DNA of 64,000 nt, taken from positions 147,994,001 to 148,058,000 of the forward strand of contig CM097883.1 in assembly GCA_044892505.1 (NCBI GenBank). The letters are read 5' to 3'. The position numbers and the translations under genes were made by a program. This document shows positions 1 to 48,598 of the stretch, piece after piece (positions within the stretch are counted from its first letter, which is position 1; each line of letters begins with the position of its first letter). The notes beneath the pieces are model-generated. The model did no database searches, was not told the DNA's origin, and saw only the letters and a program-made list of their open reading frames with translations. This DNA comes from Schmidtea nova. Its lineage: Eukaryota.

Positions 1-731
1 ACATTTTTATGGTGATGGACATAATTTTATATAATTTTGAAAAAATATTTTGTGTTGAAAATATTTTATGTAAATTAATTTTTTAACTATTTGGAAAATG
101 GATTATATTTTCATTTATATTTTAATATTTTAATTCAATAAATAATAATAATAATAAAATAAATAAATAAATAATACAGGTTGTTTAAATAAATTAAAAA
201 TAAATAAATTACTGTTTGTTTAAATAAATTATATTTCTGACCTACAAGGTCAGAAAAATGAAATAATATCTCAAGGTTAAAAAATAATTTTGAAAACAAT
301 TCTGTTTTGAAAACAACTCTATTTTCAAAAACAATTTCAATCAACTCAAGAGGCAAAATAACAATCATTATTGACAGATTAAGTGCCTTAAAATTTAGTA
401 TATAAACTGACTGATTTTTCAGTTAAATCACCCAAAAATCAAAAGCTTTAAAGAAGAGTTGTAAATTCAATAAATTGATATTACAACATAATTTGAGCAT
501 ACCTATTTACACATCCGAGCTCAGGAAGCTGCAAATATTCACACACACACACACGCATCTATACATATATAAAATATAAGTTGGAATTGATACATATATT
601 TTGTGAGGTAATTGTTTAATTTTTATCAAAATTGTAAATTGTTATAATTTAAATAAAGTTTAGAAAAGAACCAGTCTTTGACTTATTTATTTATATAAGT
701 TCATCAAGTTGAGATTCTTGGAACCTCAACA
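1..731 (+). repeat. 5' LTR of element 1 (partial)
   Basis: Identical by eye to 12009-12741 except one AC unit ((AC)7 vs (AC)8). Ends ...CTCAACA immediately before the PBS. Confidence 0.95.
399..424 (+). promoter_or_regulatory. Candidate LTR core promoter (TATA + TCAGTT initiator-like)
   Basis: TATATAAA at 399-406 and TCAGTT at 419-424; spacing is slightly short. AATAAA at 469-474. Confidence 0.3.
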
Positions 732-733
732 TT

Positions 734-751
734 TGGTGCCGCGAACCGGGA
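734..751 (+). promoter_or_regulatory. Primer-binding site, tRNA-His-like
   Basis: TGGTGCCGCGAACCGGGA lies 2 nt after the LTR end and is complementary to a tRNA 3' end ...TCCCGGTTCGCGGCACCA. The ...CGGCA-CCA acceptor resembles metazoan tRNA-His. Confidence 0.8.
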
Positions 752-992
752 CTAAATTAAATTTAAACAAATTAATTGAATTCGGGGGATAAGAATTGCG
801 ATCAGAGGATTATATTAATTGATATCGGGATTTATTTATATAAAATTATTGGACACGTATTTTTAAACGAAAACTAATCCGGATACTGAGATAATTTTTG
901 ATAACGGACAATAAAGAAATTTTTACGGAATAATAAAAATTGATAATAATCTAGAGATAGCGCATAATCTAAGAAATCGAATAGTATATAGA

Positions 993-3900
993 ATGGCGAA
1001 TAATAATGAAAATAATGATAACCTTCGTAATATTTGGCAAAATAGAGATGCTGATAACGTTAATCGTAATATTTTAATAAAGACATTACCAGTTGAACCG
1101 TATAAAGGGGAACCTGAAAAATTTGATGATTTTTTTGATGAAATTGCACAATACGCAGAGGCTTGTGGGTGGACACAAGATGAGTTAAAAAGACGAATTC
1201 CATTATATTTAAAGGGTTATGCATTGCAGGCATATAATAATTTAGAATGTAAGGGTAGAAATTGGGAAGACTTAGTCAACAATTTAAGAGGTGAAATTGT
1301 AATTGAGCGAGATTTGCAGAAAATTAATGTACAAAAATTTAGAAATAGATACCAAGGTAGCAGAGAAACAATTGGAGAATATGTGTATAATTTGACCGAG
1401 TTAGCTCGAAAAGCTTTTGGAGTAGGAGAACATACTGCGAAATTAATAGAGGATCAATTTTGGAGTGGAATTCAAAAATATTTATACAAGGCATTAATAA
1501 TGGTCGAATATGAAGATTTAAACGAACTGGTTCAGAAAGCTCGAAGAATTGAAGCAATTCAAAGAGATAGATCTAACGCAACAATTGATGCAGTAGAATT
1601 AGAGAGTAAAATAGGGAAATCTGAGGCAACTGATAAAGATGATAATATTCCATGGGAAGAGATGAAGCAGTTATATTTGAATTTTGTTAAAAATAGAAAA
1701 AGGATGGGTCCAAATGCAAGTCGAAATCAATCACCAGAAAATAATAAGAGGTCAAATAGCCCAAGGGGTAGACCGAATAGTCGAAATGACAATTATGTAG
1801 AATTTACCAGAAATGATAAAAATAATTACTTTGAATATAATAAAGATAATGAGAGACGTTTAAACTATAATAGGGATAATTATTTTGATAATAATCGATA
1901 TAATAAAAATAGTCGTTTTAATGATAATCGGAACTATAGGGATAACTTTAATACAAGGAACAATTCTGATCGAAATAGATATGATGATAATAGATATAAT
2001 TTTGGGTCAAATAGAGATAATCTTAGAGGTAGACGACCAAGTCCAAATCAACAAATGTATAATAGAGATAGAAGACCTAGCCCATTTAATAATGATGGAA
2101 GAGACAAAATTAATTTTCGAGGTGAAATAAAATGTTTTAATTGTCAAAAGTATGGTCATATGGCAAAAGCATGTAGAAATATACGAGTTGAATCACCAAA
2201 CAGAGTGCAGTTTAAAAAGGAGCCAGAGGTGAAACAAATAAATGGTATGGAGGTTAAAGAACCCAATAATGAAATCGAGATGCTGAGGGATGAATTACAA
2301 GAATTTAAGACAAAATATGAGAGACTAATTGAAAGGAATAAAATTAATGTATTGATTAATGAGTTTAAAACTTTTACTAATGAAGTTAAGATGGATAATG
2401 ATGAATTAAGAGAACAAAGAGAAAGAGATGAAGAATTACTAGCAGAGATAGATAGACATAATATTTTAAAGCAAGAATTGGACGAATCTTTAAAAAAGTA
2501 CCCTATAGATGATAATGAAGTATTGAGAATATTAAATAAAATTCATGTAGAGGGGATAAATCTTGAGAATCTGAGAAACTTGATACCGCTATTGGCTCGA
2601 AGACAAAAGGAAACAAAGTTGTTTGAATTAGAAATTGAGATAAAAGAGATGTTGAGATGTTATAGTGAATTTGTTCGAAAAAATGAGAAGTTACATGAAC
2701 CCTTGGAAATTACATTAGAAACAAAAGATGGAGATACACCTAAAATCATCATTCATAAACAAGGGGTACATACTTGTACAAAAGTGAAAAAGATAAAACA
2801 AATAGCCAGAGCAAATTGGTACAGCGAAATAGGAATCAATGATGAAATAGTATTATACTTTTACGGAATAAAGATGCAAAGTGAAGATTTTTTAATGGAC
2901 TATGGGATAAATTCAATTGATAACAATATAATAACAGTATCAGTTAAAGTGGGATTAGAATCAATGCTAGATGAATGGATTGCTAATGATAGAAGAATAT
3001 CTAAATCAGATGCGAGTCAGAAAAACGATGTAACATATGAAGCAGAGGATTTTGAAACGATAAAACAAGATGGAGATGAGTCACAAGAGTCAGAAATAAC
3101 AAATAAGTTTACTAGTAAACGGATGGCGGAAAAATTGAGAGAGATTGCAAGCGAAATGTCAACAAATAGTGAAGATACAGATATAATTATAGATTTGATT
3201 AAAACTGTATACCCAAGATTATATTCCAACGCAAACATATCATCTTTAGCAGATAACATAGGGAATCGAATTAAACTAATTACAACAGATATAAAAAACT
3301 TAGTGACTGAAGATGTTAATGAAAAAGCTGTCTTGAAAATATTATTCAGAACAGGAATAAATCAGGATAGAGTAGTAACAGCATTGGCATACCTCATTTA
3401 TAGATCAGAATATGTATTGATAAAAAATGCGGAGAAACAAGTAAATCGAGTAGCAGAACAAATATTAATGAAATTAAAACCCGAAGTGATACCATGGATA
3501 CAGTCTAAAGGTGGGTGGCAAATTTTATACGATAAAACAGTGCCGATAGAGACACCTACCATAGAAATAGATACCCAAGAAAAAGAAGTTGAAAGACGAC
3601 TAAAGAAAATAATAAATAAAACAATGATGAAATCAGGAAAAAGTAATCATGGATTATCAATACCTATTATAATAATGATGATAACAATATTACTTAACTT
3701 AATAAAGGGTAGTACAGGTATGATCGCTTATGATTGTCAGAATCCAAAATGGGGACAAAAATATTCACTATTAGATGTAGAAAATTGCCCAGAAGCTAAT
3801 CCAACCACTTTAAGTACCACAGAACCTAAAATATTTTATGTTTATCAAGAATCTGATTTTATACATACAGAAGCAAAAGAATGTGTAATAAAATATTCTG

Positions 3901-6900
3901 AAGAAGTCTTTGTATGTAATAATATAGCAAGGACGATACTCCGACCGTCATTTACACCAGACACAGTTATAATAACACCACAAGAGTGTGAAAATGCATT
4001 TCAATCAAAGAAGATAAAAATACATGAAATCGAACTAAAAGCACAGGTAGGTGCACGAGTAAAACAACGAGTAGATGTAATTGGATGGTCTTCACAGGGA
4101 GGATATTGTCAAGGTGGGGAATATAGAATATGGGGACACATTATAAAAAACGCCGTTGTAAGACGAGAATACATCGTCGAACTTAGACAGTTTAAAGCAT
4201 CATTTGACAGCATAACACAAAAAATGATGACACACCCTTTCTGTACATCAAAAGAAGTAAGTTGTGACACTGGTGAATCAATAGTAATATATAAAGTTGA
4301 TCCATACGATTGTCCTCTAACAATATTGAAGTCGCTAAAATTTACAGCAATTAAAGGCAAACAGTTTACAAATACAGAATCAACTAAAGTAAGAGATAGA
4401 AAACGAAAGACAATTGTAATCCAAGAAAAAGATACACCCACAATATATATGACAGAATCTTCAGGAGAAGCATTGAGATTTCTTAGTAAAGGGGAAATTA
4501 TAAAATGTGGAAAGTCAATAATACAAACCAATTATAAAGGTCTATATTTGAGTAAAGATGAAATAAAAGATGCGAAAATAAAAGTAAACAAATACGATAT
4601 TAAACTTTCATCATATTTCAATAATAAGATTGACTATTTTTATCACCATCAATTAATGCAATTAGATAGGGTATATCAAGAAACAATAATAAATGATTGT
4701 AAGCTTAACCGAGAAATTTTAAGATCGAAAATGGCATTAGCAATTACAAATCCGGATCTAATGGCCCCAATGCTCTTTTCAGAAAGAGGCGCATTTGCTA
4801 GAGTTGTTGGCGAAGTAATCCAAACATTTCAATGTAAACCAGTCAGTGTATCATTAGCTACGAACAAACAATGTACAAACGAATTACCAGTTATTTATAA
4901 GGGAGAGAAAGTCTACTTACAACCCATAACAAGGATACTAACAGATAAAAACTACATACCTAAGAGAATAGATAAATGTACAAACTTATTAGACCCTCTA
5001 TATAAATTAGATGACGAAACATGGATAACGATGTCAGATAAGAAGGTAGCAATAAGACCACTAAATCTAGAAATGACAGAACTAGATAAGAAACTAGAAT
5101 TCATAGAAGTAAATGATTTTGATAACAATGGACTTTATACAAAGGAAGACATAGAAAGTGCAAGAAAACATTTATTATTTCCGAACGAAAAGGAGAAAGT
5201 ACTAACAATAATAGCAAGCAAAGTTATCGAGAATAGCCACGATGGACAATACAATTTCGACATCTTGTTATCAAAAGAACACTTCAAGAAGGTAGTTTAT
5301 CGAGTTCTATATAGTATATGGGGATACTTTGCAATCCTAGGAAATACCTTCTCAACCACACTCGGCATCTATTATTCTATTGCACTACTAAAAATGATAT
5401 GTTCATCACTAGTATCATTTAGACAGCTGAGACAAGTATTTGGCAATTCATACAAAATGCTAGCTTGTTTATGTCCATTTATTGCAAAATATTTAATAAC
5501 TGCAAAACATGATAAAGATATCAAAAGAATAATAAGAAAGACAACAGAAGAAAGACTAATAGATGACAATACCAATCAAGAAAATAATCATACGGAAGAA
5601 TTCGATCACACGGAACCAACGCAAGGAGGACCATATATTATACACATGGATCAATTAAGAAATCTAGGCAATGAGATCGAAACTAATATACCTCTAAAAG
5701 ATTATAACACCCACACGCTGATAAGAAAACCAAAGAAAGTATACGGATGTTATGGACTAGAAGAAAGAGAAGAAGCAAACGACATGAGGCCAAGAACCCA
5801 AATAACGATAAACAATCAAATACTAAATGCGCTAGTAGATACCGGTGCCGCTGCATCATTGATAGAAGAAGATCTACTAACAGAAAAACAACTTCAAAAT
5901 ATCACATCAACAAATGATGAATTATTGTCACTTTCTTCACACACTATACCTATTAAAGGAAACGTAAAACTTACAGTATACTTTGAAAATCAGACCATAG
6001 ATCATGTGTTCCGAGTAGCAGATATATGTCAAAGGAAATGTATTCTAGGCATAGATATTCTGAAAAAATTAAAGAATCATGTAATTGATTTATCAGATAA
6101 CAAAATAAAAAGAAAGATAAACAAAAGTTATAAAAAGCCGATAGAAGTAAGCGCGATAGAAGAATTTGAACTAGAATATGAAAGTGATAATATTATACCT
6201 ATAAAAGTTAATATTCAAAGTGATGACATATTTATTTTCGAACCCAACACAACGATTACAGAAAATAGAAATATAATGCTAACCGACGAATGTGTAATAC
6301 CCAAAAAGGGTATAATCCCAATTCGAATTGCCAATTTCGAAAACAGAAAAATAAAAATTCATAAAGGTACAAAATTAGGTCAATTATCAAAATATAAATA
6401 TGATATTGGCGAGATAAGTATAGAAAGTAACAACCTTGAAGATACAATTAAACCGAATGACATTAAATTTTACGAAAAGACTACAATAAATAACGATTAT
6501 CTGGACAAGGTTCAACAAAAATTATTGCAGATATTAATTGATAAATATAATGATGTTTTTGCAAAGCACGAATTTGATCTAGGAGACACGGATATCATTA
6601 AACATGTAATTGATACAGGGAACGCTAGACCAATAAAACAACGACCCTATGTAACACCATATAAACTTCGAGAAGAAATAAAGAGACAAATAAATGAACT
6701 AAAAGGGGCAGGAGTAATTAGACAAAGTTTCTCACAGTGGGCTTCACCAATAGTACCAGTTAGAAAGAAAGATGGCGAAATTAGAATGTGTATCGATTAT
6801 AGAAAATTAAACGAAGTAACAACAAAAGACTCATATCCATTTCCAAAGGCACAAGAACAATACGATAAACTAAGAGGCGCTAAATATTTTACGGTCATAG

Positions 6901-6956
6901 ATGCTAATAAAGGATATATGCAAATCCAAATAGAAGAAGGAGATATTGAAAAATAA
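993..6956 (+). CDS. Polyprotein, part 1: Gag (capsid-like, CCHC knuckle) - UBL - Bcl-2-like - signal peptide - class III-type glycoprotein - TM - aspartic protease - dUTPase-like spacer - N-half of RT
   Basis: CFNCQKYGHMAKAC knuckle; LREIASEM, LFRTGINQDRVV and PWIQSKGGW motifs; hydrophobic LSIPIIIMMITILLNLIKGSTG followed by MIAYDC; LVDTGA protease motif; RT motifs WASPIVPVRKKDGEIRMCIDYRKLN. Ends at an in-frame TAA. Confidence 0.93.
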   Translation: MANNNENNDNLRNIWQNRDADNVNRNILIKTLPVEPYKGEPEKFDDFFDEIAQYAEACGWTQDELKRRIPLYLKGYALQAYNNLECKGRNWEDLVNNLRGEIVIERDLQKINVQKFRNRYQGSRETIGEYVYNLTELARKAFGVGEHTAKLIEDQFWSGIQKYLYKALIMVEYEDLNELVQKARRIEAIQRDRSNATIDAVELESKIGKSEATDKDDNIPWEEMKQLYLNFVKNRKRMGPNASRNQSPENNKRSNSPRGRPNSRNDNYVEFTRNDKNNYFEYNKDNERRLNYNRDNYFDNNRYNKNSRFNDNRNYRDNFNTRNNSDRNRYDDNRYNFGSNRDNLRGRRPSPNQQMYNRDRRPSPFNNDGRDKINFRGEIKCFNCQKYGHMAKACRNIRVESPNRVQFKKEPEVKQINGMEVKEPNNEIEMLRDELQEFKTKYERLIERNKINVLINEFKTFTNEVKMDNDELREQRERDEELLAEIDRHNILKQELDESLKKYPIDDNEVLRILNKIHVEGINLENLRNLIPLLARRQKETKLFELEIEIKEMLRCYSEFVRKNEKLHEPLEITLETKDGDTPKIIIHKQGVHTCTKVKKIKQIARANWYSEIGINDEIVLYFYGIKMQSEDFLMDYGINSIDNNIITVSVKVGLESMLDEWIANDRRISKSDASQKNDVTYEAEDFETIKQDGDESQESEITNKFTSKRMAEKLREIASEMSTNSEDTDIIIDLIKTVYPRLYSNANISSLADNIGNRIKLITTDIKNLVTEDVNEKAVLKILFRTGINQDRVVTALAYLIYRSEYVLIKNAEKQVNRVAEQILMKLKPEVIPWIQSKGGWQILYDKTVPIETPTIEIDTQEKEVERRLKKIINKTMMKSGKSNHGLSIPIIIMMITILLNLIKGSTGMIAYDCQNPKWGQKYSLLDVENCPEANPTTLSTTEPKIFYVYQESDFIHTEAKECVIKYSEEVFVCNNIARTILRPSFTPDTVIITPQECENAFQSKKIKIHEIELKAQVGARVKQRVDVIGWSSQGGYCQGGEYRIWGHIIKNAVVRREYIVELRQFKASFDSITQKMMTHPFCTSKEVSCDTGESIVIYKVDPYDCPLTILKSLKFTAIKGKQFTNTESTKVRDRKRKTIVIQEKDTPTIYMTESSGEALRFLSKGEIIKCGKSIIQTNYKGLYLSKDEIKDAKIKVNKYDIKLSSYFNNKIDYFYHHQLMQLDRVYQETIINDCKLNREILRSKMALAITNPDLMAPMLFSERGAFARVVGEVIQTFQCKPVSVSLATNKQCTNELPVIYKGEKVYLQPITRILTDKNYIPKRIDKCTNLLDPLYKLDDETWITMSDKKVAIRPLNLEMTELDKKLEFIEVNDFDNNGLYTKEDIESARKHLLFPNEKEKVLTIIASKVIENSHDGQYNFDILLSKEHFKKVVYRVLYSIWGYFAILGNTFSTTLGIYYSIALLKMICSSLVSFRQLRQVFGNSYKMLACLCPFIAKYLITAKHDKDIKRIIRKTTEERLIDDNTNQENNHTEEFDHTEPTQGGPYIIHMDQLRNLGNEIETNIPLKDYNTHTLIRKPKKVYGCYGLEEREEANDMRPRTQITINNQILNALVDTGAAASLIEEDLLTEKQLQNITSTNDELLSLSSHTIPIKGNVKLTVYFENQTIDHVFRVADICQRKCILGIDILKKLKNHVIDLSDNKIKRKINKSYKKPIEVSAIEEFELEYESDNIIPIKVNIQSDDIFIFEPNTTITENRNIMLTDECVIPKKGIIPIRIANFENRKIKIHKGTKLGQLSKYKYDIGEISIESNNLEDTIKPNDIKFYEKTTINNDYLDKVQQKLLQILIDKYNDVFAKHEFDLGDTDIIKHVIDTGNARPIKQRPYVTPYKLREEIKRQINELKGAGVIRQSFSQWASPIVPVRKKDGEIRMCIDYRKLNEVTTKDSYPFPKAQEQYDKLRGAKYFTVIDANKGYMQIQIEEGDIEK

Positions 6957-9869
6957 GCATTTGTGATAGAAAATGAGCTATACGAATTCTTAAGACTACC
7001 ATTCGGAATGGTAAATGCACCAGCAACATTTCAAAGGCTAATGAATACGATATTGATAGATGTACAACATTGCGCAGTATATATGGATGATGTACTGATA
7101 GCATCAAAAACATTCGAGGAACATCTAGAAGATATAAAAAATGTATTAGAAAGATTTAGAAAATCAAAAATTAAAATTAAACCTACAAAATGTAAATGGG
7201 CAGAACCTTCAGCCTTATATTTAGGACATATTGTCTCAGTAGAAGGCATAATCCCAAACCCAGACAAAATAAAAACAGTACAACAATTTCCAATACCAAA
7301 ATCAGTTAAGGAAGTACAAGGATTTTTAGGTTTAACAGGGTATTATCGAAAATTTATCGAAAATTATGCTAAAATAGCAGCTCCATTAATTGAATTAACA
7401 AAAGGAGTAAAAACAAAGGAAGATGGGAGAAAAACACAGATAGTCCAGAAACTAAATAAAATTAACGAAAAACCACAAAAGTTGTGGACTCAAAGACAAC
7501 AAAATTCCTTTGAGCAACTGAAAGAAAAATTAGTGACCGCACCAATACTTAGATACCCTGATTTTACTAAACAATTTATCATTATGACAGATGCCAGCGG
7601 GAAAGCCGTAGGAGCAGTCTTAGGCCAAGAAGAGGAAAAAGGAAAAGACTACGTCATCGCATATGCAAGCAAAACGTTAAAGAATGCTGAAATCAGATAT
7701 TCGACGATAGAGAAAGAATGTTATGCTATTATGTTTGCGTTAAAACAGTTCAAGCAATATATATACGGATCAGAAGTAATAATAAGAACCGATCACAAAC
7801 CATTAGAAGGGTTATGGAAGCATAAAGATACTTCAAGTAGATTATTAAAATGGGCAATGAAGATTCAAGATATGCAAATTAAAATTATCTATAAACCTGG
7901 CAGAATAAATAAGAATGCAGATGCATTATCTCGTATACCAGAATTAAGTGCTCTAGAAGTATTCGCAATAGTTGCAGAAAACCCTATACATATATATGAA
8001 GAACAAATGAACGATCCTGATTTATCAAAAATAAGAGATGAAATTAAAAAAGGAAAAAACCATAAATATAAAATCAATAAAAATTTACTGATAATAGAAA
8101 GCACGACAGGGAATAAACTCATTATAGTCCCTCAAAAATTAAGACAAATACTTTTATTACAATACCATGATGGAGCACTAGGAGGTCACTTATCAGCCAG
8201 AAAAACAGAAAATAGACTATTACAAAAATATTACTGGGAAAATTTAAAAAATGATGTTAAAGCGTGGTGTAAAGCATGTACTATATGTGCTACTAGAAGA
8301 AATACAGGTACTAAAACAAGAGCTAAAACAAGAGCTAAAACAAGCACTCCTATGAAACTATGTGCCATGGACTTTTTATGCAAATTACCCACTACAATAA
8401 ACGGTAATAAACACATATTGGTTTTTAGTGATTATTTCACAAAGTGGGCAGAAGCTTTTCCAACAAAAGATGAAACAGCGGAAACAGTAGCTAAGCTATT
8501 AACGGAAAAAATTATATTTAAGTTAGGCACACCAAGAAAATTACTCACCGATAAAGGAAGAAATTTTATGAGCGAAACAATTTCTAGAATAGCTAATATT
8601 TTTAATATACAAAAAATAAATACAACAGCATACCACCCTCAAACAGATGGATTAGTAGAAAGATTTAATGGTACATTATTGAATAGACTATCAGTTTTTG
8701 TAAATAAAAATCAAAACGACTGGGATGAATATATAAACCAATGTACTTATATCCACAACATCACACCAAATGAAACAACTGGATATTCACCATACTATTT
8801 GATGTACTTAAGGGAACCAATAATGCCAATTGACACGGTCTTTGAACCAAAAATATCACAATATTTAGACACCCCAGATTATGTTACGCTAATGCAAGAA
8901 AGATTACAAGAAGTATATAAAATAACTAATCTAAAAGTTAAATTTCGTCAAGAACAATACAAGGATGAATACGATAAAACGGCTAAACCTCATAATTTTA
9001 AAATAGGCGACAAAATTAGATTAATGTCACCACAAGTAGGCAAGGGTAAGACAACTAAACTAGCACGACCATTTAAAGGCCCATACGAAGTCATGAAAGT
9101 GATCAATGAAAATTTACATATCCAAAAAAATAAGAACGAGGATCCAACTGTTGTGCACGTCAATAGATGCAAACTTGCAGAAGACGAACTACCAATAATA
9201 AAACCACATAAATACAACTTAAGATCACAACCACAAAGTATATTAATGATATCAATAATCACCCTCATTATATTTAATACAGCTAATGCAAATATAATTA
9301 ATAACAAGGATATAAAAATAATAAGAGAACATGATAAAATCACAATTATTAATCTAAATAGGAACCCAATGATTCAATCATACTTAAAATTTATTAATAA
9401 TTCAAAAGTTATACAAAAGACGAAAAATAACGAAAAGAAATATATCGACAGATACACAAATTTGAAACCCGACACTAATTATTATTTCTGTACAGAAACA
9501 CCAATGTGGCATTTGAAAAAGACCCAATGTGAAATAATAAAAACAAAATCTCAGAAAATATACAAAAGGAAAAAGCAGAGAAGATCCCAAACGGAAAAAC
9601 CTAGAATATTAAATAGAATACCATTAAATAAACCTGCAATAACAATAAATAACTGGGAAGAATTTCAAAATCTGTATCACCCCCAACCAAAACCTTTATA
9701 TAAAACATGGCCAATGTATGTAATAATTTTTAGCATAATATTATTAATAACTATAACAATGTGGATAGGAACGCAAACTTATAGAAAATATAAGTGGAAG
9801 AGGCAGCGTTATCGGAGTTCTCTCATTAGATATATACCTGGAAGGTGCACACTATCTACCCTTTGTTAA
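6957..9869 (+). CDS. Polyprotein, part 2 (same frame): C-half of RT, RNase H, integrase, then signal peptide - FN3-like - TM extension
   Basis: EK*AFV...LPFGMVNAPATFQ and YMDD; RNase H MTDASG / EKEC / TDHKPL; integrase H-H-C-C (GHLS...CTIC), AMDF, TDKG, GLVERFN and FKGPYEV; hydrophobic segments at 9240-9290 and 9714-9770. Confidence 0.93.
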   Translation, partial: AFVIENELYEFLRLPFGMVNAPATFQRLMNTILIDVQHCAVYMDDVLIASKTFEEHLEDIKNVLERFRKSKIKIKPTKCKWAEPSALYLGHIVSVEGIIPNPDKIKTVQQFPIPKSVKEVQGFLGLTGYYRKFIENYAKIAAPLIELTKGVKTKEDGRKTQIVQKLNKINEKPQKLWTQRQQNSFEQLKEKLVTAPILRYPDFTKQFIIMTDASGKAVGAVLGQEEEKGKDYVIAYASKTLKNAEIRYSTIEKECYAIMFALKQFKQYIYGSEVIIRTDHKPLEGLWKHKDTSSRLLKWAMKIQDMQIKIIYKPGRINKNADALSRIPELSALEVFAIVAENPIHIYEEQMNDPDLSKIRDEIKKGKNHKYKINKNLLIIESTTGNKLIIVPQKLRQILLLQYHDGALGGHLSARKTENRLLQKYYWENLKNDVKAWCKACTICATRRNTGTKTRAKTRAKTSTPMKLCAMDFLCKLPTTINGNKHILVFSDYFTKWAEAFPTKDETAETVAKLLTEKIIFKLGTPRKLLTDKGRNFMSETISRIANIFNIQKINTTAYHPQTDGLVERFNGTLLNRLSVFVNKNQNDWDEYINQCTYIHNITPNETTGYSPYYLMYLREPIMPIDTVFEPKISQYLDTPDYVTLMQERLQEVYKITNLKVKFRQEQYKDEYDKTAKPHNFKIGDKIRLMSPQVGKGKTTKLARPFKGPYEVMKVINENLHIQKNKNEDPTVVHVNRCKLAEDELPIIKPHKYNLRSQPQSILMISIITLIIFNTANANIINNKDIKIIREHDKITIINLNRNPMIQSYLKFINNSKVIQKTKNNEKKYIDRYTNLKPDTNYYFCTETPMWHLKKTQCEIIKTKSQKIYKRKKQRRSQTEKPRILNRIPLNKPAITINNWEEFQNLYHPQPKPLYKTWPMYVIIFSIILLITITMWIGTQTYRKYKWKRQRYRSSLIRYIPGRCTLSTLC

Positions 9870-10049
9870 AATAAAAAACCCAATCATAAATTGTAAAATA
9901 GCCCATCCAATCATATTTCAGAAATCATTTTACCCAATAAAATTATATCAAAATCATCTATATATGTGTCCAATAATTTATAAAATTTACCCATATCTGA
10001 CAATATATTATATTGCATCTAAGGAATAGATCAACCAACAATCCAACCA

Positions 10050-11663
10050 ATGAACCAATCAGCCTCAAACAATCAGTCAAGCTCAACAATATCCACATAC
10101 ACATACACATGCACCACATATAAACACCACACAGCATTTTATAAGACCATTCAAAATAGCATTCACACAGATGAGGAAGAAATTACACCAAGGAAATTCC
10201 CGAATCAGGTATGCATACCAAATGTATTAAAAGTAGATATAGAAGAAAGAGAAATGATCATCGTAAAATTCAACTCATCAAGAAGATTTAAATTAAAAGA
10301 AATCATAGGTAGTTTTGAAGAAAGTCAAAATGCAGATAGAGATGCAAGAGAAGGCATCAAAATTCCCCACAGAATAGTAATTCATACTACCAAAACAACA
10401 ATATCACTAAAACACAACGATAAAGTATTAGCGATTGCAAACAATACATCAATAATATTTAAAACCCTTAGAGAACGTAAATTGTCTACAGAATTCAACA
10501 ATATCATTATACAACTACATAATATGCCATGTGTAATTGCAATTGAAATATTATATGTACCCACAATAGAAAATCCCTTTAAAAAATTAGAACCCATTTG
10601 GTCAGACATTAGAATGGATAACATATTCGTAGAAAAGAAAATACCTTTCACGAAGCAAACACTAACACCCGAAGAAAGACAAGGAAAAATAACTTTTGTA
10701 GACATAAAATCGGTACAAGATTTTAATAAAGAGTACAGACCAGTAGATGTCTGTATTAGAAACTACAAAGGAGACACACTATTTCAAAGTAAAATTACCC
10801 CAAGAGAAAAAATACAAAGATTCTTTCCAGAAATCACAATGGCTACCAGAGAAAATAGTATAGGCAATATGGACGAATTCATAGCATTGTTAGAAATCAA
10901 GAAACACCTCTATGGAAAAATAATAGTAGGTTTCGACATTATGAAAAAACTGAAAAGTGTCACAATAGACCTGGATGATATTATGGGAGTAAGAGAACTC
11001 TCGAACACCGAATATATGAAAACATTCGTCAATAATGTCCCGGAAGACAGGATTAAATTATCAAATTTAGCATTTCAGATTATTATGAATACAAATGATC
11101 TGAAGAGAAACAAAAAACTTAATGATATATTATTAAAACCAGAACCTTTTAATGTTGGTGAAACTTGCTTAATAGTTCGCTTACTATATTTACTCACAGA
11201 AACCGAATGGGAAAAAGCTGTTGACAATGGAATGAAAACAATAACAAAGAAAACAATTAAAGAAAATTGTTCCACATCGGACGGAAATAAGAAACCAACA
11301 TTTGAAATCATAACAATAGATGAAGATAACTCTAATTTGGAAGTAGAAGGAATTGAGCCAATGGAAGAAGATGAATTAGGACCAGAACCTCAAATCACAA
11401 TAGAAGAACCCATGCCAGAAATCACTGTCACATATAATAGCAATGTAAAGAAAACAACAGTGATTGTAGATGGGAATGAAATACACATATATTATGTTGA
11501 AAAAGGTTATGAGGACATAACCTTGACGCCCCAGGGAGTAGTGTTAGATACAGGGAAGATAGTCGAAAATTTTGAGATAGATGAAAATTATACAATAGGG
11601 GCAAATAAGTACAGACTAAATGTGTATGTGGATAACAACAATCAGAACCCAGGCCAACAATGA
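10050..11663 (+). CDS. Accessory ORF of element 1 (537 aa) with a REX4/ISG20-like DEDDh exonuclease fold and degenerate catalytic residues
   Basis: Intact long ORF between pol and the 3' LTR. FVDIKSV...VCIRNYKGDTLFQSKITPREKIQRFFPEITMAT...HLYGKIIVGFDIMKKLKSV...VRELS...LSNLAFQII...FNVGETCLIVRLLY follows the REX4-type pattern. Confidence 0.65.
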   Translation: MNQSASNNQSSSTISTYTYTCTTYKHHTAFYKTIQNSIHTDEEEITPRKFPNQVCIPNVLKVDIEEREMIIVKFNSSRRFKLKEIIGSFEESQNADRDAREGIKIPHRIVIHTTKTTISLKHNDKVLAIANNTSIIFKTLRERKLSTEFNNIIIQLHNMPCVIAIEILYVPTIENPFKKLEPIWSDIRMDNIFVEKKIPFTKQTLTPEERQGKITFVDIKSVQDFNKEYRPVDVCIRNYKGDTLFQSKITPREKIQRFFPEITMATRENSIGNMDEFIALLEIKKHLYGKIIVGFDIMKKLKSVTIDLDDIMGVRELSNTEYMKTFVNNVPEDRIKLSNLAFQIIMNTNDLKRNKKLNDILLKPEPFNVGETCLIVRLLYLLTETEWEKAVDNGMKTITKKTIKENCSTSDGNKKPTFEIITIDEDNSNLEVEGIEPMEEDELGPEPQITIEEPMPEITVTYNSNVKKTTVIVDGNEIHIYYVEKGYEDITLTPQGVVLDTGKIVENFEIDENYTIGANKYRLNVYVDNNNQNPGQQ

Positions 11664-12741
11664 TAATAATTTGACTTGATGAACTACATTTGATTGTGAT
11701 AACATTTTCTTTTATTTTATTGGTTTTGATAATTGATGATATGAATAATTGATTTTATTTGTTGATGTATTTTTTTAAAATAGATAGACAATGGAAAATA
11801 TCAAATTCAATGACATTATGATTTTAGTGATTTTATATGATAATATTTTATGTGATGACTATCTGGCAATTTTTATTTTTATGGGATAATTTTATTTTGT
11901 TTCTGTTAATAAAATATTGTTGAAAATTAATTTTTGTAATGACAATTTATCATCATGACAATTTATAATTTGACAATTTATCATTTGTGATATTGCGAAC
12001 ATTTATTGACATTTTTATGGTGATGGACATAATTTTATATAATTTTGAAAAAATATTTTGTGTTGAAAATATTTTATGTAAATTAATTTTTTAACTATTT
12101 GGAAAATGGATTATATTTTCATTTATATTTTAATATTTTAATTCAATAAATAATAATAATAATAAAATAAATAAATAAATAATACAGGTTGTTTAAATAA
12201 ATTAAAAATAAATAAATTACTGTTTGTTTAAATAAATTATATTTCTGACCTACAAGGTCAGAAAAATGAAATAATATCTCAAGGTTAAAAAATAATTTTG
12301 AAAACAATTCTGTTTTGAAAACAACTCTATTTTCAAAAACAATTTCAATCAACTCAAGAGGCAAAATAACAATCATTATTGACAGATTAAGTGCCTTAAA
12401 ATTTAGTATATAAACTGACTGATTTTTCAGTTAAATCACCCAAAAATCAAAAGCTTTAAAGAAGAGTTGTAAATTCAATAAATTGATATTACAACATAAT
12501 TTGAGCATACCTATTTACACATCCGAGCTCAGGAAGCTGCAAATATTCACACACACACACACACGCATCTATACATATATAAAATATAAGTTGGAATTGA
12601 TACATATATTTTGTGAGGTAATTGTTTAATTTTTATCAAAATTGTAAATTGTTATAATTTAAATAAAGTTTAGAAAAGAACCAGTCTTTGACTTATTTAT
12701 TTATATAAGTTCATCAAGTTGAGATTCTTGGAACCTCAACA
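11542..12741 (+). repeat. 3' LTR of element 1 (start inferred)
   Basis: 12009-12741 matches the 5' LTR. The start is inferred from purine run AGGGAGTAG (11533-11541) followed by TGTT, which complements the AACA end; it cannot be confirmed because the 5' LTR start lies outside the window. Confidence 0.75.
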
Positions 12742-16722: not shown

Positions 16723-18300
16723 TTATTTTGCAGTGTCCAATTGTTCACTAGGATTCGCTAGGATTCGTTTGGTACAGTCAGGGAACTGTCGCCTGTGTTC
16801 ATTCACAATTTGAAGAAGAAACTGGAGTTGATCTTCATTCTTGGTCAATTTCTTATTATAATCTTGAATGAGAGCTACTCCACTCTCGACTCTGTCGTTG
16901 ACAACCGCCAAGCTCTTGACAATGCCCAGTGCTCGTGTGTACGACTCACCTGGTTCCCAGTCTGATGGATCCTTGTCGAGCAGTGATTTGGGTAGATCAA
17001 GCAACTGGGACAGTTTCTTGGAGTTTGATGTACAAAACTGCTCCAAACCGAGTTTTCCCAGGAATACATCAGACTTTATGCTGAGTCGCTTCGATGGATG
17101 ATCTGGAGCTTCGTCTTCCATCGCGGCAATTATTAGTCTCTTTGAGTCATGCGATATTCTGGAGTCAAACAGGGCCAGACCAATGAGCTCCTCACAGATA
17201 CCACAAATGTAGACCAAGCTTCTTGCTGTTGCAGCAGAAATAGCCGCATGCGGATAGTTCATAAGTTGTCCCATAAGCTTGAAGTTATTCAGAGGTGCTT
17301 CTACAACCAAAGGTTCAGTCATCCAGGCTTTGAGGTGGATGATAACGGAAAAGATGGCGACATCACAAATACCATGCTTTTCTGAAGCAGTCATCTTGAA
17401 CTGACTGCGATAAAGCTAAGAAATATGACTGAAAGCTCAAGGAATTCTCTGTAGTCATCTCTTGGCTGTTCAGCTTGCAAATATGTTGTGGCAAAACTCA
17501 GGATATCAGAACGATATGGGGCAACTAGTAACTCAACAGATGGGTCTGATGAAGCAACCTGAAAGCCGTCACGGTCTATGAATGACCATTGATCATGAAA
17601 CCGTTTGAATAATAGAATGTCTAGCCCTGTTGAAATGCCAACTCAAGTATTATCAAAGAAGATCTTTGTTTAGTTTGTGCTCGATCAGACAACAAGCTCC
17701 TGAACGATGACCAGTATTAAATGCTGCCGTATCAAAACAAAGAGCAGCGATCTGATCTTCGACACCCCACTCTTCCAAACATTGAACAACTGCAGATGCT
17801 TGGGCTTCACCTGTCCCAGTTGACAGCTTTGGGACACAAAGTAACTGTTCGACTCCAAAACCTGAGATAAGGACTGGAAGACGATCTACATGCTCATGTG
17901 TCGATAAATCTTCCATTATCTTTCCGTCCCAGTGAACCGTTAAAGTGCAGTTGATGAAAACTCTGATCGCAAACCGGTAGGTCTGGCAGCCTGGTGACTT
18001 GCTCTAGCCCGATGTATTGAACTTCGGTTGATGTTTTAAGTGTTCACATAATGACCAAGGCTGGAAGCTACTTCATTTAGAACGAATGTAGCATTGATGT
18101 CCCAGATCGATGCCCGTCTGCTACCCCAACTTGATTTCCCAGAACGATTCCCCTTACCGATGTCCCCGTTTGATGTCCCAAACCCATATTCTAGACCAAT
18201 TTCCAATGTTCCTGAACACCCCCGTGTATGCTGTGCTGAACTCATGATCCCATATCGGATCTGAGCTAGAGAATGAGAAAAAATTGTAAAACAAATCGTT
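16723..18300 (-). pseudogene. Disrupted DDE (hAT-like) transposase
   Basis: Fragments EQLLCVPKLSTGTGEAQA...LCFDTAAFNTG...GAC and VVNDRVESGVALIQDYN...LLQIVNEHR, broken by frameshifts and stops; markedly GC-richer than the flanks. Confidence 0.7.
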
Positions 18301-19945: not shown

Positions 19946-22150
19946 CAATAATAAAAAAGCAATAATTTTGTTTGGGATTTATTTTTTCTATTTTCGATTG
20001 ATATCTTGATTCGACATCACATTTGATAAAAAAAAGATTTTTAGTTGATTTGACATTTTGTTGCAATGGTCCACGATTACGTAGGTAATTAATATTGAAA
20101 TATTTTTAATGAAATTATTGTACTTATACCAATTTTTGTACTTAATAGTTGTAAATTTATTAATTAAAATTATTTTTTAATAAAATATTATTTTATCAAT
20201 TGTCTTTTGTTTTTTAAATATATTTTGCTACAAAATCTGCCAATGGATATGTATGATTTAAATTTGATACCATTAAGTAAAGTTGAATTCATCTTTTTAA
20301 ATTAAATTAAACAAAGTTAAATAAAATATTAAAATTTATGTTAAAGAATGGTGCAAATATTATGCAGTTTTCGTTGTCCGTGCAAATATCGAAATTAATT
20401 ATTTACACTTTGTACAAGCAATTTTAATCAAGACTGAATTAACTTTTTTTGTTAGTGTGAATCTCAATTTTTCCAGATATTTTGCATAGTTTTGCAACTT
20501 TTTAAATTTCTCAGTTTTCATTTATTTTCTTATATTTATTATATTGTTGAGTTTATTATTAAGTCGGCACAAATCTCTGACTTCTCGCGCTCCTTTTACA
20601 ATAAAAGTCACCCAACTCAATAACATTTATTAAATTTCAATACACAATTACAATGTCGTAAACAATTATTGATAATCTGCACTACTGAGCGACTGGAGTA
20701 GGTCTTCCAATGGGAGATCCCCCTTTCTGGTACGCAATAATTGATTTGAAGTAAAACTATCTAACCTTGTGAATAACTCGTAAAACTATTTTCGACCACC
20801 TGACAATTTCTCGTATATTCCCTGAGTTTACAGAGTAACTATTGATTGGGCACTAATTGAATTTCATTTCGTCAATCCTGAATCTTTGGGATTTTTCTTA
20901 AATTATTTTATTTACCCCTCTGGTTCTGCTTTTCGCTCGGGTTTCTTGATAATCAATTTGTCTGGAGTAATTACGTTAGTTCTTGTTTACTCGGTTTTCT
21001 TTATCTCTGCGTTTCCCTACATGAATTTTTCTAAGATAATAAAATTTATTTTTTGACAACTCGTGTTTCTCATTAGCTTGGGTTTTCTTTAAGGTAATTA
21101 ATTTTTTTTCATAATATTTCTTTTTGGGGACTCCCTTTTGATTTTATATCATCATATTTGAATTTGTCTCATTATTTGACATCCGCCTATATCAGCCCAC
21201 CGCAAAATCTTTATTTTTATTTTTCAAAATTTTAATTGATTTCTGTACTTTAATTAATTACTTTAAATTTTTCATGTTTTTTTATTTGCATATGGTTTTT
21301 GTGCTCTTTATTTTATCTTAAGATTAATTTCAATTAGGGTTGTCAAGTGGTCAACACAAAAAAAGAGAACATTTTAAAAAAAAAATTTTTAAAATCAAAT
21401 TTTATACATAAAGATATTAAGGAACATAAAATTGCACTTATAATTCAAATTTGTGCTTTAAAAATATAAATTAAATTTAATTTAATCATCTTCATCATCA
21501 TTTTGATCACTTTTTTCAATGTATTTATCTACATTACTAACTTTGTTCAAAAAAATTTCATTTTCTTTTATTTCTTTATAAAATTCCAAACATGAAATAT
21601 TTTTATAATTATAAACTACGCTCAAAATACCTCGGACAGTGGAAATTTTTAGCTTATTTCTTTCTTTAGTCCACTGGCCGCTAATCATGGAAAATATTCT
21701 TTCAACATTAGCATTTTGACCAGGTATTGCGAAAAAAAATTGACATATTTTTAAGAGTTCTGAATAGGCTTGTCAACAGGTCTCTTTTAAAGAGAACATG
21801 TTCTCTTTTTTAGCACATTTTATTTGTCCTCTATCTTTTTCTATAAATATTCAAATTGTTCTCTTTTTTCAATTTCGCTGATTTTTAATTAATTTAAGTT
21901 GAAATTTAAAAAGAAACTCGGTATAAAAATTCAAAAATTTGAAAAAAAGCAGGCTATGCTATTGCTGTCCTGTCAATATTTATTGAATTTAAAATTAAAG
22001 ATGAAATAATTTGTGTGTATTAACGATTTTGATAAGAAATCATTATTATTATAATTTGTTGTGTTAAATAAATAAAATAAGCAAGTGAAAAGTAATTATT
22101 AATATTATATTTTTTTGTGTTAAATAAACAAGTAAGTATGTAATTTATTA

Positions 22151-23057
22151 TTGTTAATTAGAGTCTTATATTTTATATTCTTGGATTTTTCTATTTTAGC
22201 TCCAAATATGAGTAAACGAAAATGTTTATTTACTGAAGAACTGCAAGCTAAATTTGTATGTTTTAAATCAACACCAAATTCAAAATCCGAGGCAATATGC
22301 ACTGTTTGTAATACTACAGTTTCGGTTGCAAACAAAGGCAAATACGATTTGGAACAACATATTGCGTCAAAAAAGCATACAAATACTATTCGTATAGGAG
22401 AGAGTTCCAATTCCATATGCAATTTTTTTACAAAAAAATTTTCATCTCTGGATCACAAAGTATCAGCTGTCGAAGGAGCTTTAGCATTCCACACTTTAAA
22501 GCACCATTATAGTTATAACTCCACCGTTTGTACAAACAAATTACTGTCAAACATGTTTGATGATTCGGAAGTAGCTAAGCGGATTTCATCTGGAAAGACA
22601 AAAACGAGATGTATCGCAAATAATGTCATCGCTCCATATTGCATTGAAAATATAATGCAATCATTGTCCAAAATACCATTTATATCAGTTTCAACAGATG
22701 GAAGTAATCATGGGGCAATTAAAATGTTCCCAGTTCTTATTCAATTTTTTGACAAAAATAATGGAATAATGACAAAAATGATTGATTTATATTCTTTGCC
22801 AAACGAAACAGCAGAGACAATAAGTGATAATTTGAACACTTGTTTAGAAAAATACAATATTGTCGAAAAATGTGTTGCTTTTTCTGCTGACAACTGTAAC
22901 ACTAATTTTGGAGGTTTGAAAAGATCAGAGAAAAACAATGTTTACAGCCTTTTAAAATTGAAATTTGGAAAAGATTTAATAGGTGTTGGTTGTCCTGCTC
23001 ATATTGTTCACAATTCCGCACAGCATGGATTTGATTCGATGACAGTAGATTTAGAAT
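22151..23057 (+). pseudogene. 5'-half copy of the hAT transposase, truncated at the junction with the next copy
   Basis: Near-identical to the N-half of the 23205-25166 ORF (STDGS vs STDES, KFGKD vs KFEKD); ends at MTVDLE, where a TIR begins. Confidence 0.9.
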
Positions 23058-23204
23058 TAGGGTTGTCAAGTGGTCAACACAAAAAAAGAGAACATTTTAA
23101 AAAAAAAATTTTTAAAATCAAATTTTATACATAAAGATATTAAGGAACATAAAATTGCACTTATAATTCAAATTTGTGCTTTAAAAATATAAATTAAATT
23201 TAAT

Positions 23205-25166
23205 TTAATCATCTTCATCATCATTTTGATCACTTTTTTCAATGTATTTATCTACATTACTAACTTTGTTCAAAAAAATTTCATTTTCTTTTATTTCTTT
23301 ATAAAATTCCAAACATGAAATATTTTTATAATTATAAACTACGCTCAAAATACCTCGGACAGTGGAAATTTTTAGCTTATTTCTTTCTTTAGTCCACTGG
23401 CCGCTAATCATGGAAAATATTCTTTCAACATTAGCATTTTGACCAGGTATTGCGAAAAAAAATTGACATATTTTTAAGAGTTCTGAATGAAACTCAACAG
23501 CATTTGTTTTAAAATATTCTGTCCATTTGAGACAGGTAATCAATTTTCTAAAATTTTCTATATTAATGTTTTTTTCTACAAATACCTTTAAATTATAAAA
23601 TTGATCAAAACATTTTACATCATCAACAACGATGTTTTTAGATGCAAGCAATACTATCGTATTCTCAATTTCTTCCCATGTTGGAACTCTATCTAATTTC
23701 ATCCAAGTAACGCTTTCAAAATTGGATAGTTGACTAGTCCATAACTTTAAATATTCATAAGACATCTTATAGCAATTCATGCAATTTAAATTGAATTTAT
23801 CTATTTCATTTTCCAATCCATTTTTTATATTTTCAGACAAAATAGACTTTACTTTGATTGGAAAAAATGATTCCTCATATCTATGATGCAATGTATTTGC
23901 TAATGAATTTGTTGTAGCCATTACTTCTAATACAGAATTTTGTTCAGATTCTATTTCTAATATTTTTTCATGAAAAATATGCATTAATGATTCAGCAAAT
24001 TCTAAATAAGCTTTACTAAAAGCATCTTCAAAAAATAATTTTAAAATACGAGGAGAGTTATCAATTGATAAAAAATAAGCTTTTAAAGCAGGATAAACTT
24101 CCAAGACTCTTTTCACAGCGGGATAAAGTGATAACCAGCGCGTTTTTGAATGTTTTAATAACGCTTTATACTGAATGTCTACAAATTCGCAAAAACTTTT
24201 CAAAGATTCTGTCCTTATTGTATAAATTGAAAAAAAATTATAGAGTTTTAAGATTATAGATTCTAAATCTACTGTCATCGAATCAAATCCATGCTGTGCG
24301 GAATTGTGAACAATATGAGCAGGACAACCAACACCTATTAAATCTTTTTCAAATTTCAATTTTAAAAGGCTGTAAACATTGTTTTTCTCTGATCTTTTCA
24401 AACCTCCAAAATTAGTGTTACAGTTGTCAGCAGAAAAAGCAACACATTTTTCGACAATATTGTATTTTTCTAAACAAGTGTTCAAATTATCACTTATTGT
24501 CTCTGCTGTTTCGTTTGGCAAAGAATATAAATCAATCATTTTTGTCATTATTCCATTATTTTTGTCAAAAAATTGAATAAGAACTGGGAACATTTTAATT
24601 GCCCCATGATTACTTTCATCTGTTGAAACTGATATAAATGGTATTTTGGACAATGATTGCATTATATTTTCAATGCAATATGGAGCGATGACATTATTTG
24701 CGATACATCTCGTTTTTGTCTTTCCAGATGAAATCCGCTTAGCTACTTCCGAATCATCAAACATGTTTGACAGTAATTTGTTTGTACAAACGGTGGAGTT
24801 ATAACTATAATGGTGCTTTAAAGTGTGGAATGCTAAAGCTCCTTCGACAGCTGATACTTTGTGATCCAGAGATGAAAATTTTTTTGTAAAAAAATTGCAT
24901 ATGGAATTGGAACTCTCTCCTATACGAATAGTATTTGTATGCTTTTTTGACGCAATATGTTGTTCCAAATCGTATTTGCCTTTGTTTGCAACCGAAACTG
25001 TAGTATTACAAACAGTGCATATTGCCTCGGATTTTGAATTTGGTGTTGATTTAAAACATACAAATTTAGCTTGCAGTTCTTCAGTAAATAAACATTTTCG
25101 TTTACTCATATTTGGAGCTAAAATAGAAAAATCCAAGAATATAAAATATAAGACTCTAATTAACAA
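23205..25166 (-). CDS. Intact hAT transposase (probable start MSKRK at ~25109)
   Basis: Zn finger CTVC...HIASKKH; catalytic STDES, SADN and NVERIFS; CxxH motif (CPAH); uninterrupted 653-codon ORF between TIRs. Confidence 0.92.
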   Translation of the reverse strand: MLIRVLYFIFLDFSILAPNMSKRKCLFTEELQAKFVCFKSTPNSKSEAICTVCNTTVSVANKGKYDLEQHIASKKHTNTIRIGESSNSICNFFTKKFSSLDHKVSAVEGALAFHTLKHHYSYNSTVCTNKLLSNMFDDSEVAKRISSGKTKTRCIANNVIAPYCIENIMQSLSKIPFISVSTDESNHGAIKMFPVLIQFFDKNNGIMTKMIDLYSLPNETAETISDNLNTCLEKYNIVEKCVAFSADNCNTNFGGLKRSEKNNVYSLLKLKFEKDLIGVGCPAHIVHNSAQHGFDSMTVDLESIILKLYNFFSIYTIRTESLKSFCEFVDIQYKALLKHSKTRWLSLYPAVKRVLEVYPALKAYFLSIDNSPRILKLFFEDAFSKAYLEFAESLMHIFHEKILEIESEQNSVLEVMATTNSLANTLHHRYEESFFPIKVKSILSENIKNGLENEIDKFNLNCMNCYKMSYEYLKLWTSQLSNFESVTWMKLDRVPTWEEIENTIVLLASKNIVVDDVKCFDQFYNLKVFVEKNINIENFRKLITCLKWTEYFKTNAVEFHSELLKICQFFFAIPGQNANVERIFSMISGQWTKERNKLKISTVRGILSVVYNYKNISCLEFYKEIKENEIFLNKVSNVDKYIEKSDQNDDEDD

Positions 25167-25619
25167 TAATAAATTACATACTTACTTGTTTATTTAACAC
25201 AACAAATTATAATAATAATGATTTCTTATCAAAATCGTTAATACACACAAATTATTTCATCTTTAATTTTAAATTCAATAAATATTGACAGGACAGCAAT
25301 AGCATAGCCTGCTTTTTTTCAAATTTTTGAATTTTTATACCGAGTTTCTTTTTAAATTTCAACTTAAATTAATTAAAAATCAGCGAAATTGAAAAAAGAG
25401 AACAATTTGAATATTTATAAAAAAAGATAGAGGACAAATAAAATGTGCTAAAAAAGAGAACATGTTCTCTTTAAAAGTGACCGTTTGACAAGCCTAATTT
25501 CAATGTCAAATTTATAAGCGTCATTATAGCTTGGTCGTCCGCCATGGATACTTATAATTTTTGATATTCTTTTTTATAATACAAATTAGAATGTATTAAT
25601 TTTATTTAATTTAATTTGG

Positions 25620-48273: not shown

Positions 48274-48510
48274 CTAGCACCACCGGTTCAAATCTTGTTA
48301 AATCTTTTGCGGTATTTAATACCATTTTATTGTAAACGCTTTTAAAATATTCTTTTGTACACATCATAAATTCAAATATAAATATTACTTGAACACTTCC
48401 TTTTTATTTATTTATATTTATTTATTTATATATCTTTTCTTTTGGACTCAGACCTGTGTTAAGGTCGAGATATCCCCAAATTATTTATATACTTAACGAT
48501 CTTAACATTT

Positions 48511-48528
48511 TAGTGAGCCCGACGTGAT
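48511..48528 (+). promoter_or_regulatory. Degenerate PBS, tRNA-Trp-like (element 2)
   Basis: TAGTGAGCCCGACGTGAT, two mismatches to TGGTGACCCCGACGTGAT, following an LTR-like end ...CTTAACA at 48507. Confidence 0.7.
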
Positions 48529-48598
48529 AAAACTCCGGGGGATAGAACAAAGTTGAGCTAAGAAAGTGTTGAATTTTGAATAGGGGTAATATAATTAA

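Follow-up and report, generated by a model that had tools for sequence, protein, structure and literature searches.

A conserved module behind the integrase of a Burro-like retrotransposon of Schmidtea nova probably encodes a second membrane protein

Why would a retrotransposon that already encodes a fusion glycoprotein extend its reading frame beyond the integrase into what looks like a further membrane protein? The question is raised by a stretch of 64,000 nucleotides of the Schmidtea nova genome (GenBank assembly GCA_044892505.1, contig CM097883.1, positions 147,994,001 to 148,058,000, forward strand; hereafter the window), which begins within a Ty3/gypsy long terminal repeat (LTR) retroelement. 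An initial annotation, made from the letters alone, had read the segment 9240-9869 at the end of the polyprotein of this element as a signal peptide, a fibronectin type III (FN3)-like domain, a transmembrane helix and a basic tail, and had regarded it as a captured fragment of a host receptor in the usual slot of env. From our point of view, the segment, here called the tail, is likely to be a further type I membrane protein closing the polyprotein, and it belongs to a module that is conserved across a whole clade of elements.

The frame from 6957 to 9869 codes for 970 amino acids and leads from the reverse transcriptase (RT) through the integrase (IN) into the tail with no stop until its end. 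All motifs of the initial annotation were recovered in frame at their expected places: behind the landmarks of the integrase end, HVNRCK at 9156 and YNLRSQ at 9213, follow the signal-like stretch, then YTNLKPDTNYYFC (9453-9491) and CEIIKT (9528-9545), which both lie inside the beta domain, and finally RKYKWKRQRYR (9783-9815) right behind the transmembrane helix (Table 1). By rule, the basic flank, the hydrophobic core and the small residues at -3 and -1 conform to a cleavable signal, for which cleavage is predicted, and the single transmembrane helix with positive charge on its C-terminal side conforms to a type I protein. The proposed membrane-protein layout is hence consistent with the rules for hydrophobicity and charge, and the helix of the sister family (family B, see below) is flanked by charges of +3 and +7. 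The stalk also contains a basic, furin-like run, which was rejected as a conserved cleavage site since family B does not keep it.

The segment is also retained among copies. Across 9240-9869, the 30 closest genomic copies are free of indels and show three private stops. A protein search of the same genome, in which the best 150 of 768 candidates were scored, yielded at least 70 full-length copies of the window's own family (family A) at 92% identity or more, of which 62 have a stop-free tail and 15 an unbroken frame of 2992 codons; most of the remaining scored candidates belong to family B of the same genome, which has 2993 codons, the same layout and a tail about 55% identical to that of family A. 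Nei-Gojobori counts on one pair of copies from A and B, at a synonymous divergence (dS) of about 1-1.7 (about 1.2 in the tail), gave a ratio of nonsynonymous to synonymous substitution (dN/dS) of 0.23 for the tail (bootstrap 0.13-0.37), with 0.33 for the beta domain (0.12-0.70) and 0.09 each for the membrane-near stalk and the cytoplasmic part; the fusogen and RT each stand at 0.05, the Bcl-2 region at 0.31. Families C and D, to which the fusogen had led in the same genome, form a second pair and gave 0.22, with 0.16 for the ectodomain versus 0.47 for the transmembrane helix plus cytoplasmic tail. Within family A, the corresponding ratio of differences (pN/pS) is 0.78 for the tail and 0.61 for the integrase in the same test, values that are uninformative as the family is too young. 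Judged from the substitution counts, the tail is under purifying selection between the sister families; the initial annotation had pointed to retention and dN/dS as a check on its reading, and neither of the outcomes it named as refuting, a missing FN3 or beta-sandwich prediction and a variable, frame-broken segment in sibling copies, occurred.

What kind of domain, then, would such a protein expose? AlphaFold2, given six aligned natural copies with family B first, modelled the domain of the sister family, which is 49% identical to that of the window, with seven strands (predicted local distance difference test, pLDDT, 74.6; predicted template modelling score 0.66). With this model, VIA-align placed fibronectin at the top (Z 9.4, root-mean-square deviation 2.9, 83 residues), 45 of its 50 rows being FN3-type by title, and Foldseek matched FN3 domains with a probability of 1.0 and template modelling scores of 0.5-0.63. 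The ten best matches by language-model features, to be taken as a lead only, all fall into the FN3 clan (0.87-0.89). In sequence, the fold matches are only 5-22% identical. Ahead of strand F lies the pattern L-x-P-x-T-x-Y, with L, T and Y invariant in all six rows and the proline present in four; the cysteine pair on the last two strands (9489/9528) is likewise invariant, and the sequon is kept in five rows. A conserved tryptophan in strand B is a hallmark of FN3 domains; it was not found in families A and B and is present in C and D. Pfam fn3 (PF00041), proposed in the initial annotation as a check, recognises neither the window nor the sister family nor the relatives, with a weak match to Pur_ac_phosph_N (E 0.08), and a search of a viral fold library returned FN3-like phage and giant-virus domains among its matches, none of them outstanding. 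The annotated FN3-like character therefore holds at the level of predicted fold, with a domain that is not a member of PF00041.

The module reaches far beyond the two sister families. A search with the integrase end of family B returned 49 long proteins, the 15 best of which, together with families A-D, form a clade of 19 rows with a support of 99 in two quick trees of RT, ribonuclease H (RH) and IN (52 and 26 rows, the first with one clade row left out) that disagree on the deepest split. All members but one (P0008) end in a signal stretch, an ectodomain of 95-383 residues, a transmembrane helix and a tail, always in frame with IN. Fourteen of these 18 ectodomains are classed as FN3-like with one to three units, two as beta-rich and of uncertain class, and two as Cys-rich, so that a modular ectodomain stands beside a fusogen that is 37-44% identical across the clade. 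In nine of the 18, the signal stretch has no Met at its start or within the 12 residues before it. An iterated profile gathered 17 repeats from eight proteins of other elements, and an alignment of 12 clade domains matched the profile of A and B at 86% over 60 columns in a profile-profile comparison; for five FN3 domains of the host, the match was 38% over 16 columns and confined to the motif. Searched against PDB, the 12-domain profile found mostly FN3-bearing receptors (33 named among 36 matches at E up to 10, the best at 0.01). From these comparisons, the shared slot after the integrase is clear, and the domains probably descend from one ancestor. As such, the module is, by its distribution, old and a feature of the clade rather than a recent capture.

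Several relatives carry further domains around this slot. P0010 has an additional signal, FN3-like and transmembrane module at residues 48-232, ahead of the protease (PR), besides the one after the integrase. P0011 and P0015 have the Cys-rich ectodomain, with PPxY motifs in their tails. At least one extra aspartic-protease domain follows the integrase in P0001-P0004, P0006, P0008 and P0013-P0015, ahead of the signal stretch in those that have it, and in P0003 and P0004 ankyrins also lie between integrase and signal stretch. A more distant gypsy polyprotein, P0017, continues in frame after the integrase with a chromodomain and then a rhabdovirus-type glycoprotein.

A host donor of the domain was not found in the searches made. 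Neither a word-index search with the tail (no donor or outside homologue) nor one with the domain profile among longer proteins (nothing, which is weak evidence), nor HMMER over 1.84 billion representatives (no true homologue) revealed a relative; the lone HMMER match, a VWA-repeat protein whose score was summed over 10 stretches, was rejected as spurious. Among the PDB sequences, the matches were a pair of antibody chains with E about 1, and NCBIfam had no match. In the same genome, copies of the element filled the best 150 candidates scored in each of two protein searches (out of 768 and 240, respectively), and no donor was found among them. Of 92 host fn3 matches, the five examined, from a Robo-like and an ankyrin-FN3 protein, share only the 16-column motif, and the domain is closer to the tails of other elements than to these. 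A host origin of the domain is plausible; a captured host receptor fragment, as originally supposed, is disfavoured by the missing donor in three protein collections, by the low identity of the fold matches and by the age and spread of the module. The annotated env slot fared better in part: the module does sit where env usually sits, but it has not replaced env, since the same frame already encodes, further upstream and between Gag and the protease, a Monjiviricetes-type fusogen (PF24664, E 2e-88).

The very end of the chain is conserved as well. T-L-C-stop is found in all 30 copies and in family B, and an S/T-X-hydrophobic end occurs in 12 of the 18 clade tails (10 with V, I or L) versus 3 of 35 other retroelement proteins from the same search (Fisher p 2e-5 for rows that are not independent; five of eight lineages). 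Families A and B end in T-L-C, the other motif-bearing tails mostly in T/S-X-V. The class I consensus is S/T-X-hydrophobic (PMC4810129), and with cysteine admitted as its last residue, as in the ELM pattern, S-T-L-C is a candidate class I PDZ-type ligand. Such a class I motif requires a free C-terminus (PMC4810129), so that only the last protein of a chain can carry one; the same source describes a class I motif in Env of HTLV-1 (a human T-cell leukaemia virus) and DLG1 at cell contacts.

Taken together, the element has a single reading frame in the order Gag, Bcl-2-like domain, signal, fusogen, transmembrane helix, PR, RT, RH, IN, signal, domain, transmembrane helix and tail. By hydrophobicity and charge, this chain would cross the membrane of the endoplasmic reticulum four times, by means of two internal signals and two stop-transfer helices, so that Gag/Bcl-2 and Pol would stay on the cytosolic side and the two glycoproteins would face the lumen. 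Host signal peptidase would free both glycoproteins, and Pol would stay tethered until the protease of the element cuts; viral polyproteins that are cut by signalase thread the membrane likewise. The lumenal domain is predicted as an FN3 sandwich closed by a disulfide between strands F and G. Its last place in the chain would provide the free C-terminus for a PDZ motif, which could hold the protein at polarised membranes or cell contacts, where the FN3 domain would engage some partner of the adjacent cell, fusion itself being left to the fusogen.

Within this scheme, we favour the tail protein as an adhesion or attachment partner of the class III fusogen in cell-to-cell spread, a reading to which we would assign a probability slightly below even. 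It is suggested by the constant fusogen beside a modular ectodomain, by the PDZ motif with its analogy in HTLV-1 Env, and by a gap in gB-type entry, which a 2026 survey of env-bearing Ty3/gypsy elements calls unexplained, as herpes gB needs gD/gH/gL (PMC13524379). The fuller version, in which one polyprotein supplies two-glycoprotein entry through a class III fusogen and a modular adhesion protein of FN3 type, with the PDZ motif of the latter setting up a contact similar to a virological synapse, is possible but tentative. If true, gB-type errantiviruses would have the attachment component that they have so far lacked, and an LTR retroelement would show such a pairing for the first time.

A number of observations weigh against this interpretation. 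An ectodomain of 140 residues is small beside a class III trimer, and the G proteins of rhabdoviruses and bornaviruses attach without a partner. The confident fold model is that of the sister domain; folded alone, the window ectodomain reached a pLDDT of 52 with no significant match, and none of the Foldseek rows is at E 0.001 or better, rank 1 being a bacterial non-FN3 sandwich. The 17-domain profile scores the domain of family A no better than shuffles (144 of 1000 score as high; for family B 76 of 1000), and it is only the profile-profile test, with 12 rows hand-picked by eye, that linked A and B to the clade domains. Sequons are not in excess in family A (1 versus 1.6 expected), and their clade-wide count (88 versus 49) is accompanied by a raised cytosolic control (84 versus 61). 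The PDZ motif of the window, moreover, has Cys as its final residue, which matches less well than the Val/Leu found elsewhere.

The strongest competitor assumes the same protein and processing but directs its action at the cell that produces it: it would mimic a receptor and serve as decoy, signalling modulator or superinfection block, one of several host-directed cargoes along with the ankyrin, Bcl-2 and ubiquitin-like domains. PDZ and tyrosine motifs in the receptor-like tails would fit such a role, as would the faster change of the tail relative to the fusogen (0.23 versus 0.05), which resembles that of the Bcl-2 region (0.31). The literature describes many host-directed domains in Burro elements (PMC6431247) and viral PDZ motifs that often disturb host scaffolds (PMC4810129). 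No host receptor was found, however, that is alike beyond the fold, hence there is no evident target of mimicry, and 18 of the 19 members have the slot occupied, more regularly than optional cargoes such as ankyrin (3 of 14 relatives' proteins scanned with Pfam). We consider this reading rather unlikely; if true, mobile elements abundant in a regenerating animal would carry a receptor mimic.

An unlikely alternative to an attachment role is an anchor for assembly or trafficking, with the signal tethering Pol, the cytoplasmic tail recruiting machinery for budding or sorting, and the ectodomain being an exchangeable folded spacer. This would explain why the cytoplasmic tail and the membrane-near stalk are the best conserved parts, and it agrees with the exchange of FN3 for a Cys-rich domain in the two PPxY-bearing relatives and with the frequent position of extra protease domains between IN and signal stretch. 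A mere spacer is, however, difficult to reconcile with purifying selection on the domain itself (upper bound 0.70), with several lineages in which it is expanded to two or three units, and with the C/D pair, in which the ectodomain is more constrained than the transmembrane helix plus cytoplasmic tail.

Separate expression from a spliced or subgenomic RNA, with a start at ATG 9246 and an incidental link to IN, would be compatible with any function. In A and B, the signal stretch has a Met at its start and would then be an ordinary N-terminal signal peptide. Yet the module is in frame with IN in every carrier, half of which have no suitably placed Met, and no AG with a pyrimidine tract lies ahead of the ATG in A or B. 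Since the missing Met and the missing splice acceptor favour an internal signal, we regard the polyprotein route as highly probable and separate expression as quite improbable. Four sequencing runs of unspecified kind cover the region evenly with no informative joint near 9240 and are silent on expression. Finally, a functionless host gene fragment recently captured by a young element is hardly credible, since the within-family pN/pS of the tail, like that of the integrase, is expected from mutations after insertion, and since the dN/dS values between families, the clade-wide layout and the lack of a close host donor contradict it.

As for the setting of the module, Pfam finds the Gag knuckle, the Bcl-2-like domain, the Monjiviricetes fusion glycoprotein, PR, RT, RH and IN in this order (Table 1). 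The two LTRs have 1198 identical bases and differ solely by one 2-base indel, and TCTG stands at both flanks, from which a very young insertion follows. The frames 915-6956 and 6957-9869 are a single frame, divided in this copy by a stop codon inside RT (6954-6956) that the initial annotation does not mention; the tail protein would thus come from other copies. The separate accessory open reading frame (ORF) is 23-55% identical among families A-D, with a dN/dS of 0.23 and an ISG20 exonuclease match at E 0.056, and its last 122 bases lie within the 3' LTR.

Table 1. Coordinates of the retroelement features in the window, beginning with the tail
Feature	Position	Strand	Remarks
Internal signal sequence ILMISIITLIIFNTANA	9240..9290	+	basic flank upstream (+3), A-x-A ahead of predicted cut; rule-based
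FN3-type beta-sandwich (predicted)	9291..9548	+	sequon 9396; L-K-P-D-T-N-Y 9462-9482; Cys pair 9489/9528
Stalk	9549..9713	+	variable basic linker, then conserved stretch (dN/dS 0.09)
Transmembrane helix (stop-transfer) MYVIIFSIILLITITMWIG	9714..9770	+	charge +2 before, +6 after
Basic cytoplasmic tail	9771..9869	+	28 of 32 residues same as sister family; end S-T-L-C-stop (stop 9867-9869)
Whole LTR retroelement	1..12741 of the window; 5' LTR start 467 bases outside	+	13.2 kb in total, Burro-like Ty3/gypsy
5' LTR, 3' part	1..731	+	LTR start 467 bases upstream of window; target-site duplication 4 bp, TCTG
Primer-binding-site-like sequence	734..750	+	begins TGG, 2 bases past LTR
Gag	993..2177	+	capsid-like region (PNMA E 0.09); one CCHC knuckle 2127-2177 (zf-CCHC E 2e-4)
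Bcl-2-like domain	3324..3518	+	Pfam E 9e-6, 26.7 bits, under cut-off 31.4
Class III fusion glycoprotein (Monjiviricetes/gB-type) with its internal signal sequence	3660..5498	+	mature start ~3720, membrane region ~5300-5420
Aspartic protease	5784..6077	+	Pfam
RT and RH	6759..7871	+	interrupted in window copy by stop 6954-6956
Integrase with zinc finger, core and C-terminal domain, then a short linker	8127..9239	+	in frame with tail
Accessory ORF, separate	10050..11663	+	kept in families A-D; weakly ISG20-type exonuclease-like
3' LTR	11542..12741	+	1200 bp; purine tract just ahead

Some further details of the locus may be added. The Bcl-2-like domain (region 3324-3719) lies about 50 residues ahead of the signal stretch of the fusogen, and after cleavage there Gag would end in a tail-anchored Bcl-2-like protein. 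Ahead of it, at about 2700-2950, a region appears ubiquitin-like by eye, with no Pfam match here and a Pfam match in the relatives P0005 and P0009. Between the zinc finger and the core of the integrase (8300-8346), there is a short local rearrangement relative to the siblings, with the word TKTRAK repeated and a length shorter by 6 bases. Just upstream of the accessory ORF, 55 bases that are present in 28 copies are missing from the window copy and one other. Elsewhere in the window, a second, decayed element of the Gag-fusogen-Pol type (about 48500-57500) breaks off inside its integrase, and the tail module was not found there; transposase-like frames, hAT-like by eye, lie at 22136-25181, 29793-31290 and 16723-18003, the first two forming an inverted duplicate.

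The class of the element is known. The planarian giant gypsy element Burro/GYPSM1 encodes one polyprotein with Gag, a BCL2-like domain, env and PR-RT-RH-IN as well as an accessory ORF, and its env lies in frame between BCL2 and protease and resembles mononegavirus fusion proteins (PMC6431247). The window element shares this domain order, including the position of env, but differs in size (13.2 kb and about 2990 amino acids, versus more than 30 kb and 4873-5140 amino acids), in its one zinc knuckle and in that MATH, BIR and ankyrin were not found in Pfam scans. Of the ubiquitin-like domain before BCL2 and the dUTPase-like domain between PR and RT of Burro, neither has a Pfam match in A or B; P0005 and P0009 have hits to the former. 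By its size and the missing MATH, BIR and ankyrin cargo, the element is Burro-like, not Burro proper. The shared order, like the AT-rich DNA, fits a planarian flatworm as the likely host. It further shares gene order, class III env and many young copies with the GAG-ENV-POL errantiviruses of the HSV/gB type (HSV for herpes simplex virus) that are reported from Platyhelminthes, Nematoda and Bryozoa, six flatworm elements from one species measuring 14.5-18 kb (PMC13524379 and its supplementary file 1); this likeness is by description, and the accessible account covers the env ectodomain only.

A description of the post-integrase module was not found in the accessible parts of PMC6431247, PMC13524379 and PMC11410931 or by literature searches, and the supplements of Grohme 2018 and Repbase entries may mention it. 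Section 7 of PMC6431247 names no membrane protein after the integrase, and the term 'fibronectin' is absent from this paper and from the text of PMC13524379 and its supplementary file 1. The conserved module is real and apparently unpublished, and a second conserved surface protein across one clade would represent a named and testable candidate for the gap in gB-type entry.

Compared with animal FN3 domains (fibronectin, IFNAR2, Dscam, Robo, DCC), the window domain shares the predicted seven-stranded sandwich, the motif before strand F and a membrane-near position in a type I protein, but it lacks the strand-B tryptophan, is only 5-22% identical and under Pfam detection, has an extra F-G cysteine pair and is encoded by a retroelement. 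The likeness to HTLV-1 Env, a C-terminal PDZ motif on a viral membrane protein at cell contacts (PMC4810129, accessible part), is a functional analogy with no homology, and the window motif would sit on a non-fusogenic second protein of a Gag-Env-Pol chain. Functional only, with no homology, is also the likeness of the proposed pair to the systems of herpesviruses (gD/gH/gL) and paramyxoviruses, in which a fusogen is paired with a separate binding protein. Unlike retroviruses and insect errantiviruses with their separate, spliced env, the retroelement described here would pass one chain four times through the membrane and keep both Gag and Pol anchored there.

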